From Myxococcota bacterium (GTDB lineage Bacteria > Myxococcota_A > UBA9160 > UBA6930): a DNA stretch of 64,000 nt. The notes below the pieces were generated by a model that ran no database searches, was not told the origin of the DNA, and saw nothing but the letters and a program-made list of their open reading frames with translations. A program made the translations under genes and the position numbers. The stretch is taken from the NCBI GenBank assembly GCA_965223415.1, contig OZ245002.1:704001-768000 (forward strand), given 5' to 3'. Below, piece after piece: positions 16,460 through 18,088 of the stretch; within the stretch, counting starts at the first letter, position 1, and each line of letters begins with the position of its first letter.

Positions 16460-18088
16460 ATGCTCTCCGCCACCCCGTGCCGCGTCGTCCCTGCCTTCCT
16501 GGCACTGCTGTTCCTGGCCGCCACCGCCGCGGCCCAGCCGGCGGCGATCCCCGCGGAGATCCGGGCCGAGGTGGCGCAGGCCGGTAGTGCGCGGGTGATC
16601 GTGGAGCTGGCCGACCCGGCCTTCGTGCCGGGCGTGAAGCGGCGCGGGCGGGTGGCCCCGAGCCAGCCCCGCATCGCCCGGACACGGGCGCGGGTCGAAG
16701 CGCTGCTGCCGGCAGGCGCGAAGCAGCGCATGCGCCGCTTCGACGAGCTGCCCCTGCTCTCGATCGCGGCGGACGCCGCCACCCTCGCGGCACTCCAGAC
16801 TTCCCCGGACGTCGCCGCCGTGCACGTGGACCGGCTCTACGCGCCGACCCTCAATACGTCGATCCCGGTAGTCGGCGCCGACATCACCGAGGAGGCCGCC
16901 TTCATCGGCACCGGCAAGGCGGTGGCGATCATCGATACCGGCGTGGACAAGACCCACTCCACCTTCGGTGGCCGGGTGGTGGAGGAGGCGTGCTACTCGC
17001 TGGGCGGTGATTGCCCGGGCGGGGCAACCGCGGTGATCGGAACCGGCGCCGGCGTGAACTGCACCTTCTCGACGAGCTGCTTCCACGGCACCCACGTCGC
17101 GGGCATCGCCGCAGGAGCCGACGCCACCTACACCGGTGTCGCGCCCGGCGCGGACATCGTCGCCATCAACGTCTTCACCGAGTTCACGGGCAGCCAGAAC
17201 TGCGGAACCGGGCCGGATCCCTGTCCCCTGGCCTACACGACGGACATCATCTCCGGGCTCCTGTTCGCGCGGTCGATCGCGACCTCCGACATCGCCGCGG
17301 TGAACCTGAGCCTCGGTGGCGGGCAATTCACGAGCCAGGCCGCCTGTGATGCGGACGATCCGCCGATGACGGCGGAGATCGCCGCCGTGCGGGCCGCCGG
17401 GATCGCGCCGGTCGCCTCCTCCGGCAACGAGGGCTACACGAACGCCATGGGGTCGCCGGGCTGCGTTACCGGGATGATCAGCGTCGGCAACACCAACGAC
17501 AGCGACATCGTCTCCTCCACCTCCAACAGCGCTTCCTTCTTGACGCTTCTTGCGCCGGGCTCCTCGATCCGATCGGCGGTGCCGCCGATCCTCTTCTCCG
17601 GATCGAAGTGGCAGTATGCGAGCGGCACCTCGATGGCGGCGCCCCACGTGGCCGGGGCCTTCGCCGTGATGCGATCGGCGGTCGCCGGCCTCAGCGTCGA
17701 CGCCGGCCTGGCCGCGCTCACCAGCACCGGCCAGCCGGTCACCGACGCCCGCAACGGCATCACCAAGCCGCGCATCGACGTGGAGCTCGCCCTCGAATCC
17801 CTGGCGCCGGCCGAGTGCTTCAACGGCCTGGACGACGACTTCGACGGCCAGACCGACTACCCGAACGATCTGGGCTGCGCGACGGGCTTCTGGCCCGAGG
17901 CCCCCGCCTGCCAAGACGGAAACGACAACGACGGCGACAGCCTGATCGACCATCCTGCCGATCCCGGCTGCAGCGCACCCTCCGACGGCTCGGAGGGCAA
18001 CAGCAGCGGCGTGACCTGCGGGCTCGGCGTCGAGCTGCTGGGGGTGCTGCCGCTCCTGGCGGCCGCCCGGCGCCGGCGCCAGCTCTAA
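16460..18088 (+). CDS. Secreted S8 subtilisin-like protease with two Asp/Cys-rich Ca-binding-type repeats and a C-terminal CGLGxEL anchor
   Basis: Signal peptide, I9-like propeptide; IIDTG, HGTHVAG, SSGN, SGTSMAAPHVAG; CFNGLDDDFDGQTDYPNDLGC and CQDGNDNDGDSLIDHPADPGC; ends CGLGVELLGVLPLLAAARRRRQL. Confidence 0.93.
   Translation: MLSATPCRVVPAFLALLFLAATAAAQPAAIPAEIRAEVAQAGSARVIVELADPAFVPGVKRRGRVAPSQPRIARTRARVEALLPAGAKQRMRRFDELPLLSIAADAATLAALQTSPDVAAVHVDRLYAPTLNTSIPVVGADITEEAAFIGTGKAVAIIDTGVDKTHSTFGGRVVEEACYSLGGDCPGGATAVIGTGAGVNCTFSTSCFHGTHVAGIAAGADATYTGVAPGADIVAINVFTEFTGSQNCGTGPDPCPLAYTTDIISGLLFARSIATSDIAAVNLSLGGGQFTSQAACDADDPPMTAEIAAVRAAGIAPVASSGNEGYTNAMGSPGCVTGMISVGNTNDSDIVSSTSNSASFLTLLAPGSSIRSAVPPILFSGSKWQYASGTSMAAPHVAGAFAVMRSAVAGLSVDAGLAALTSTGQPVTDARNGITKPRIDVELALESLAPAECFNGLDDDFDGQTDYPNDLGCATGFWPEAPACQDGNDNDGDSLIDHPADPGCSAPSDGSEGNSSGVTCGLGVELLGVLPLLAAARRRRQL

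Follow-up and report, generated by a model that had tools for sequence, protein, structure and literature searches.

A cysteine-containing C-terminal tail, very probably an unnamed sorting signal, on unrelated secreted proteins of one class of Myxococcota

The window analysed here, a stretch of 64,000 nucleotides from a genome of Myxococcota (5.83 Mb, one contig, 71% GC), contains a gene for a secreted subtilase, the product of which ends in CGLGVELLGVLPLLAAARRRRQL, and, 23 kb away, a gene for an 808-aa protein ending in CGLGPELVGVLGLLLGARKGRAAWRRGPVD. Are these two ends alike by chance, do they belong to one of the known C-terminal (CTERM) sorting signals, or do they represent a signal which has no name? 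The original prediction, made from the letters of the window, favoured the last answer. Its description of the subtilase was borne out, since the Peptidase_S8 domain scored over the cut-off and the translation carries the tail, with the Cys codon at window position 18017 (Table 1). The likeness of the two carriers is indeed limited to the tail: the best BLASTP match between them had E = 0.37, and the tails are identical in 15 of 23 residues. The second carrier is secreted and has the tail at its end, as had been stated; the name "trypsin-like" goes back only to His/Asp/GDSG motifs and a Nal1_C match below the cut-off (17.1 vs. 26.1 bits).

Table 1. Tail-carrying proteins of the window and their features (window positions).
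Feature	Position	Strand	Basis
S8 (subtilase) protease, secreted, 542 aa, carries tail copy 1	16460..18088	+	Peptidase_S8 match and sequence
Predicted N-terminal signal peptide of S8 protease, about 25 aa	16460..16534	+	Sequence, hydrophobicity; cleavage site inferred
Peptidase_S8 domain, residues 150–415	16907..17704	+	Over cut-off, 90.5 bits
Acidic double-disulfide repeat-like stretch, S8 protease	17906..17974	+	NF033662, 33.4 vs. cut-off 41
Tail copy 1 (CGLGxEL) with Cys at 0, Glu at +5, Pro at +11 and Arg cluster at +17, then stop	18017..18088	+	
Secreted 808-aa protein, trypsin-like motifs and CARDB domain, carries tail copy 2	41044..43470	-	
CGLGxEL tail copy 2	41044..41136	-	

The whole genome was searched for the motif in its six-frame translation, on segments 60 aa or longer. 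CGLGxEL occurred 11 times, nine times at most 45 aa from a stop, and a tail HMM gave 14 copies at 45.9–55.8 bits (seed sequences scoring high by construction), with the next match at 15.9. With two further copies in segments shorter than 60 aa the total is 16, comprising 11 intact secreted proteins, one gene without a signal peptide in any frame and four broken remnants; by pattern and by HMM, the motif is thus spread through the genome and not confined to two proteins. The wider pattern CG[LIFV]GxE[LIV] followed by a basic pair had 14 matches, all of them at most 52 aa from a stop. When the Cys was swapped for each of eight other residues, 18 matches were obtained, none of them near a stop, and a chance origin of the motif is therefore excluded.

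Among the carriers in this genome are, according to Pfam, a subtilase, a metallophosphoesterase, beta-helix proteins, an alpha/beta hydrolase, a PD40 propeller, an FG-GAP protein and a protein with GSDH/PA14; 11 of the 12 long carriers have a hydrophobic N-terminus on a simple hydrophobicity scale. The DNA of the tail copies has a mean identity of 61% and a maximum of 80%, so that the tail was not recently duplicated. Four broken or orphan copies are situated at 3477551 (L007), 3015519 (L012), 3574263 (L221) and 3898311 (L222), which suggests that tagged genes turn over fast. Contigs compared at L007 showed no difference; they may be the source DNA itself. Internal tail copies with further domains behind them were noted twice (L040:1495-1584, + strand, and P0121) and resemble an internal case of MYXO-CTERM in print. 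A search of the ESM Atlas gave nothing above 0.79, and a promoter and terminator scan found nothing.

The consensus of the tail is C-G-[LFI]-G-x-E-L-x3-L-P-x-L-x3-RRRR. In 52 tails from many genomes, which like the 152 database tails agreeing with them were gathered using the motif or a motif-favouring model, so that the invariance is partly due to selection, C, G, G and E were present in 52/52; position +2 was L (59%), F (25%) or I (13%), position +4 was P (40%), F (38%) or A (11%), and L at +6 (90%), a later L (84%), P at +11 (88%) and L (88%) were followed by Arg, with Pro at 88–90% over both sets. The first Arg stands at +17 in most tails, and the Arg cluster extends from +17 to +20. CGxGxE was present in all of the 120 top database matches, 113 of which had it at most 45 aa from the end. 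The consensus first proposed from two sequences, with C-G-L-G-x-E-L-[LV]-G-V-L at its start, was drawn too tightly: its G-V-L varies among the tails, and the Pro at +11 is conserved. The uncharged run after the Glu comprises 11 residues in 9 of 12 tails of this genome, and mostly 14–18 in its PEP-CTERM tails. A tail with too little hydrophobicity for a membrane span was considered and found no support, as its mean hydrophobicity over 17 residues is 1.79 vs. 1.70 for the PEP-CTERM tails of the same genome; because of this likeness the segment could span the membrane, with the Glu presumably buried. The number of Cys residues in the protein body is even in 11 of 12 carriers of this genome and in 61 of 75 database carriers which looked full-length and had a hydrophobic N-terminus (103 were examined). 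An even count leaves the tail Cys without a partner; from the sequences, it looks unpaired.

The tail behaves as a module. Two paralogues of the genome, 39% identical over 280 aa, differ in their ends: the one at 2645564-2647687 has the Cys tail, the one at 4862792-4863937 a PEP-CTERM tail. Among S8 homologues, 54 of 120 carry the tail; the remaining ones end in other modules, presumably such as IPTL-like or dockerin-like ones. Repeats of the acidic double-disulfide type, with the consensus DPxC, stand ahead of the tail in many carriers and are missing from several; in the S8 protease of the window, the repeat-like stretch adjoins the linker on its 5' side.

The class in which the tail occurs is presumably UBA9160 of the GTDB. 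The name Vahlivitia is given to class UBA9160 in 10.64898/2026.07.10.737566. Tail matches were found in 72 of 151 class genomes with a 52-row model at E ≤ 0.001 (79 at 0.01; 69 with an earlier 13-row model), and their number reached 34 in one genome (G081). Positive were 70 of 119 genomes of the order, and 2 of 32 of the other family. In a draw across the phylum, 34 of 75 class genomes matched vs. one weak single match in 311 other Myxococcota. A profile of the tail and 20 upstream residues (42 residues together) gave 2,572 clusters at 50% identity, a number which may be an overcount, as the profile takes in residues of the upstream repeat. In a larger set 787 of 8,000 scored candidates matched, and the names listed were mostly "hypothetical protein"; the titles of matching relatives pointed mostly to Myxococcota or Deltaproteobacteria.

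Is the tail one of the signals for which models exist? None of the 14 scanned tails of this genome reached an NCBIfam CTERM cut-off, in agreement with the original prediction that the motif is unlike the curated models. In a set of 58 tails, three passed a cut-off marginally, namely two that of TIGR03382 (16.9 and 15.9 vs. 15.85) and one that of GlyGly-CTERM, TIGR03501 (18.5 vs. 15.5). TIGR03901 was passed by none, with weak matches in 8 of 58; the commonest weak match was Synerg-CTERM, TIGR04564 (11 of 58, the best at 18.7 vs. a cut-off of 22.5), and CGP-CTERM (TIGR04288) and JDVT-CTERM (NF033191) had no match in the 58. A Pfam search with three tails of this genome gave nothing over the cut-off. 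PEP-CTERM (TIGR02595) matched 22 times in this genome, never at the position of a Cys tail. A presence of MYXO-CTERM in the class was considered and rejected: TIGR03901 matched in 10 of 61 class genomes, once in each and without a Cys, and these singletons were nine PEP-CTERM tails and one Lgt helix.

Of 38 class genomes searched with the myxosortase core model NF040914, none gave a score over the cut-off, as against 160 of 163 other Myxococcota, and the best score in this genome was 26 vs. a cut-off of 100; by this enzyme, the tail is thus not MYXO-CTERM. Within the sampled phylum, the Cys tail and the myxosortase system are nearly complementary. MYXO-CTERM (TIGR03901, TIGR03382; MrtX/MrtC/MrtP) is of the same phylum and likewise has an invariant Cys, a hydrophobic segment and an Arg cluster; there, too, a genome has many secreted clients that are unrelated to one another, and the type II secretion secretin is present. 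The MYXO-CTERM helix, however, is described by Haft (2023; 10.1101/2023.06.07.544157) as free of charged or Pro residues, and the signal often has GCGC, whereas the Cys tail has a lone Cys within the fixed motif CG[LFI]GxEL and both Glu and Pro inside the helix, in a class with no true MYXO-CTERM match in 61 genomes. The tail shares the Cys with this family and lacks its model score, its cognate enzyme and its helix.

Other families resemble the tail in single traits, and it qualified as a member of none of Synerg-, JDVT-, CGP-, GlyGly- and PEP-CTERM (with its VPEP motif). Synerg-CTERM also has a single Cys directly after a small-residue linker, without a spacer, and a Pro in a Leu-rich helix, but is of another phylum and has not the invariant Glu (best MrtS score in this genome 43.6 vs. 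a cut-off of 130). CGP-CTERM is likewise a short signal beginning with Cys-Gly; it continues with Pro and is archaeal (Thermococcales), whereas position +2 of the Cys tail is L, F, I or V (best MrtA score 50 vs. 200). In JDVT-CTERM a single Cys is combined with an acidic residue and a Pro in the helix, and client and enzyme are adjacent in low-copy genomes, too; its Asp-Pro is placed in print nine residues after the Cys, whereas in the Cys tail the Glu stands at +5 and the Pro follows at +11, and the partner of JDVT-CTERM is a CPBP protease, while the enzymes adjoining a Cys-tail client are an Lgt and a PAP2-like protein (best MrtJ score 28.6 vs. 75, and no CPBP among recurring neighbours). 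PEP-CTERM with its exosortase coexists with the Cys tail in this genome and exchanges with it on paralogues, but lacks the Cys and has a longer uncharged run, with the Glu in a different register.

Measured against the tripartite criteria for such signals in 10.1101/2023.06.07.544157, the tail shows C-terminal placement (14/14 and 113/120, as above), many copies on proteins of unrelated Pfam content (16 in this genome), at least three near-invariant signature residues with a hydrophobic segment and a basic cluster, a hydrophobic N-terminus on most carriers (11/12 by the simple scale), and homologues without the signal or with another one (the PEP-CTERM paralogue; the S8 homologues). As far as the text descriptions there go, none of the four Cys-containing signals in print has the CG[LFI]GxEL motif. 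The motif strings were not found in the openly searchable literature (subscription papers being outside this scope), and literature since 2024 on CTERM signals in Myxococcota yielded nothing beyond PMC11980579. The tail is an unmodelled variant of the Cys-containing CTERM kind, outside all modelled families, and very probably represents an unnamed, class-specific C-terminal sorting signal on unrelated secreted proteins. What stands of the predicted Cys sorting system is the tripartite multicopy signal, which was found to be neither restricted to two proteins nor, in this genome, matched by a CTERM model.

Which enzymes could process such a tail? The window contains none, as the original prediction had said. 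The genome has five CPBP, two exosortase, five rhomboid and two Lgt genes, and the type II secretion secretin GspD scored over the cut-off; local profiles detected no hidden paralogue of CPBP, exosortase or Lgt beyond the five, two and two. No clade confined to tail-positive genomes was found for CPBP proteases (six tail-positive and five tail-negative genomes), for rhomboids (six and five) or for exosortases (seven and six, using the best 28 of 39 matches and the two of this genome), and no CPBP of the class groups with the Mrt clade. With a class devoid of myxosortase and no protease clade tracking the tail, cleavage at the Cys gains no support. A CPBP with its best match to MrtA (L005) was considered as the sortase and dropped, as it has no orthologue in three genomes of the same genus; only weak matches to it were present in 10 of 150 genomes. 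Another type of CPBP (L002) is single-copy in 103 of 119 genomes of the order and occurs in 0 of 32 of the other family; by hand count it is present in 61 of 70 tail-positive and 42 of 49 tail-negative genomes of the order, and thus tracks the tail at order level only. A third one (L003, 4869838-4870617, - strand), of the TIGR03008 type and over the cut-off, is shared by genomes with and without the tail. At 4838539-4839501 (+) lies the gene for a membrane protein weakly resembling exosortases (8 bits), and similar faint matches exist in tail-positive and tail-negative genomes.

A recurring neighbourhood was found for a different enzyme. It is a cassette in which a PEP-CTERM gene (seen in the four loci that were long enough) is followed by the gene of a tagged DUF7467 client, roughly 950 aa long, by an Lgt paralogue in the same orientation as the client, here called Lgt2, and by a convergent PAP2_3-like gene; the PEP-CTERM gene opening it shares its N-terminal domain with the tagged client. 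Clustering of the neighbourhoods at roughly 65 loci from genomes and 95 from metagenomes brought out nothing recurrent but this cassette and ordinary synteny; in the 95 metagenome loci, mostly short, neither a protease nor an Lgt or PAP2 gene came up repeatedly as a neighbour. Orthologues of Lgt2 (E < 1e-50) are present in 27 class genomes, all of them among the 72 with the tail and none among the 79 without it. Leaving this genome aside, Lgt2 immediately follows a tagged gene, in the same orientation, in 11 of the other 26, usually together with a PAP2-like gene. All 11 pairs involve one homologous client family and hence count as one cassette, not as 11 observations. With a 69/82 split of the genomes and the 11 adjacency genomes left out, Lgt2 stood at 16 vs. 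0 of 52 within the order, with p = 1e-5, a value overstated because kin are not independent. In one genus (g3), all seven tail-positive genomes have both Lgt2 and the PAP2-like gene, and two tail-negative ones have neither; the 23 genomes with an orthologue of the PAP2-like gene all belong to the Lgt2 set. Since Lgt2 is missing from 45 of 72 tail-positive genomes, including those richest in copies (G081, G103, G097, G055, G017), a required role appears doubtful.

Lgt2 retains G142, R143, G154, Y235, R239 and R246 of E. coli Lgt, both catalytic Arg among them, but H103 is replaced by T or F, N146 by C and E151 by D; H103 and N146 are essential in E. coli. The residue roles are taken from PMC13251419, where such replacements are reported in distant Lgt proteins and one N146C homologue is presumed to be of low activity. 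The Lgt2 gene of this genome (3948152-3948916) does not adjoin a tagged gene. Head-to-head with it, 33 bases apart, lies a gene for an ICMT/PEMT-like methyltransferase (L078:2257-2964, +; near 3948950), suggestive of a carboxyl methylation of the CaaX type; the other loci inspected had no such gene next to Lgt2. A decayed cassette is present at 688300-690560 (L220, - strand), with the PEP-CTERM gene followed by a frame-broken, shortened client remnant, and the Lgt2 and PAP2-like genes of the genome lie away from it. An Lgt subfamily with an invariant GRxGCxxxHDH is widespread in Myxococcota (L159-L178, L302-L306) and branches apart from the housekeeping Lgt of the class. HDH-type Lgt was detected in 95 of 163 other Myxococcota (E ≤ 1e-18), but not in the myxosortase-bearing families f19 (0/18), f26 (0/11) and f30 (0/4), and no Cys tail stood beside it at 25 loci outside the class, most with flanks of 1.5 kb. 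A role of this type as the universal acyltransferase of MYXO-CTERM thus found no support.

The unpaired tail Cys and the co-travelling Lgt paralogue indirectly support a lipidation of the Cys, which we regard as probable, by an enzyme of the Lgt family; for MYXO-CTERM an Lgt-like lipidation step has been proposed, the acyltransferase being left unidentified with Lgt as the leading candidate (PMC11980579). The scheme as a whole, a surface-anchoring signal with a Cys lipidated by an Lgt-family enzyme and a helix cleaved off without a myxosortase, appears somewhat more plausible than its negation. The proteins, with their hydrophobic N-termini, would be exported by the signal peptide, and the 17 residues from the Cys to the Arg cluster, judging from their layout, would hold them in the inner membrane with the Arg inside. 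At the outer face a diacylglyceryl group could then be put on the unpaired Cys, as gene linkage and analogy suggest, by the extra HDH-type Lgt in genomes having it and by the housekeeping Lgt in the remaining ones. In the weakest step, a housekeeping intramembrane protease other than myxosortase might recognise the buried Glu and Pro and cut off the helix; the single-copy, order-wide CPBP of the L002 type would be the first candidate. The type II secretion system, the secretin gene of which is present, may finally carry the lipidated protein to the surface. A more speculative version would be a C-terminal lipoprotein pathway proper to this class without myxosortase, in which an Lgt paralogue, aided by a PAP2_3-type lipid enzyme, would attach the lipid to the Cys of what would be a mirror-image signal peptide, the tail being retained or else cut by an intramembrane protease from a family new to sorting.

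In the main alternative, the protein is lipidated but never cleaved; the tail would be pulled whole from the inner membrane, and lipid and tail together would anchor the protein. Such a course would suit the lack of the myxosortase core and of a protease clade confined to tail-positive genomes, whether CPBP, exosortase or rhomboid, as well as a cassette with Lgt2 and a PAP2-like gene and no protease, and a run of only 11 uncharged residues after the buried Glu; uncleaved MYXO-CTERM proteins were also proposed, in PMC11980579, to be able to reach the surface. We consider it unlikely, however, as the hydrophobicity of the tail allows a membrane span, and each of the four printed Cys signals is paired with a CPBP protease (10.1101/2023.06.07.544157), the clades having been compared in six or seven positive and five or six negative genomes only. 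The common phylum, layout and invariant Cys, the eight weak matches to TIGR03901 and the two just over TIGR03382 could instead mean that the tail is a strongly diverged MYXO-CTERM handled by a myxosortase too diverged for its model. With a best core score so far below the cut-off, no CPBP of the class in the Mrt clade, none hidden in this genome by local profile, and a Glu and a Pro which are foreign to the MYXO-CTERM helix as described by Haft, this appears improbable.

A variant of PEP-CTERM (G-P/F/A-E-L) serving as substrate of an exosortase, with the Cys being secondary, would account for the exchange of the two tails on paralogues and for a cassette opening with a PEP-CTERM gene that shares the client's N-terminal domain, and exosortases are present in this genome and in six of six other tail-positive genomes tested. 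We give it little credence, since the Cys is invariant and position +4 is variable, the Glu stands 12 residues ahead of the Arg cluster vs. mostly 15–19 in PEP-CTERM, and none of the exosortase clades compared is limited to genomes with the tail. Least probable would be a plain, unprocessed anchor in the inner membrane, spread by domain shuffling with the acidic repeats: although the tail and the upstream DPxC repeat travel together in many carriers, and no enzyme would then be needed in all genomes, four invariant residues at fixed spacing exceed the needs of an anchor, several carriers have no repeat, and the divergence of the tail DNA argues against a recent duplication.

MYXO-CTERM is called universal in Myxococcota by Guo et al. 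(PMC11980579), and so is myxosortase; a whole sampled class is without both and carries another Cys signal in place of MYXO-CTERM. The unmodelled and likely surface-sorting signal is a mark of proteins in thousands of clusters, most of which at present bear the name hypothetical, and the four-gene cassette offers a compact test of which enzyme lipidates the cysteines of C-terminal sorting signals.

Both types of tail are present within the 64-kb window, as a secreted protein of 202 aa with a PEP-CTERM tail (52952-53560, - strand) is the top TIGR02595 match of the genome. The neighbours of the S8 gene (window 13618-18088) are presumably an aminopeptidase-like gene and a UDP-glucose pyrophosphorylase-like gene, as we judge from the sequence. 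The same aminopeptidase gene is close to tagged genes in the genomes of four other family members (L064, L065, L224, L225). Directly downstream of the S8 gene, a response regulator and sensor kinase pair is encoded (window 18281-20535, + strand).
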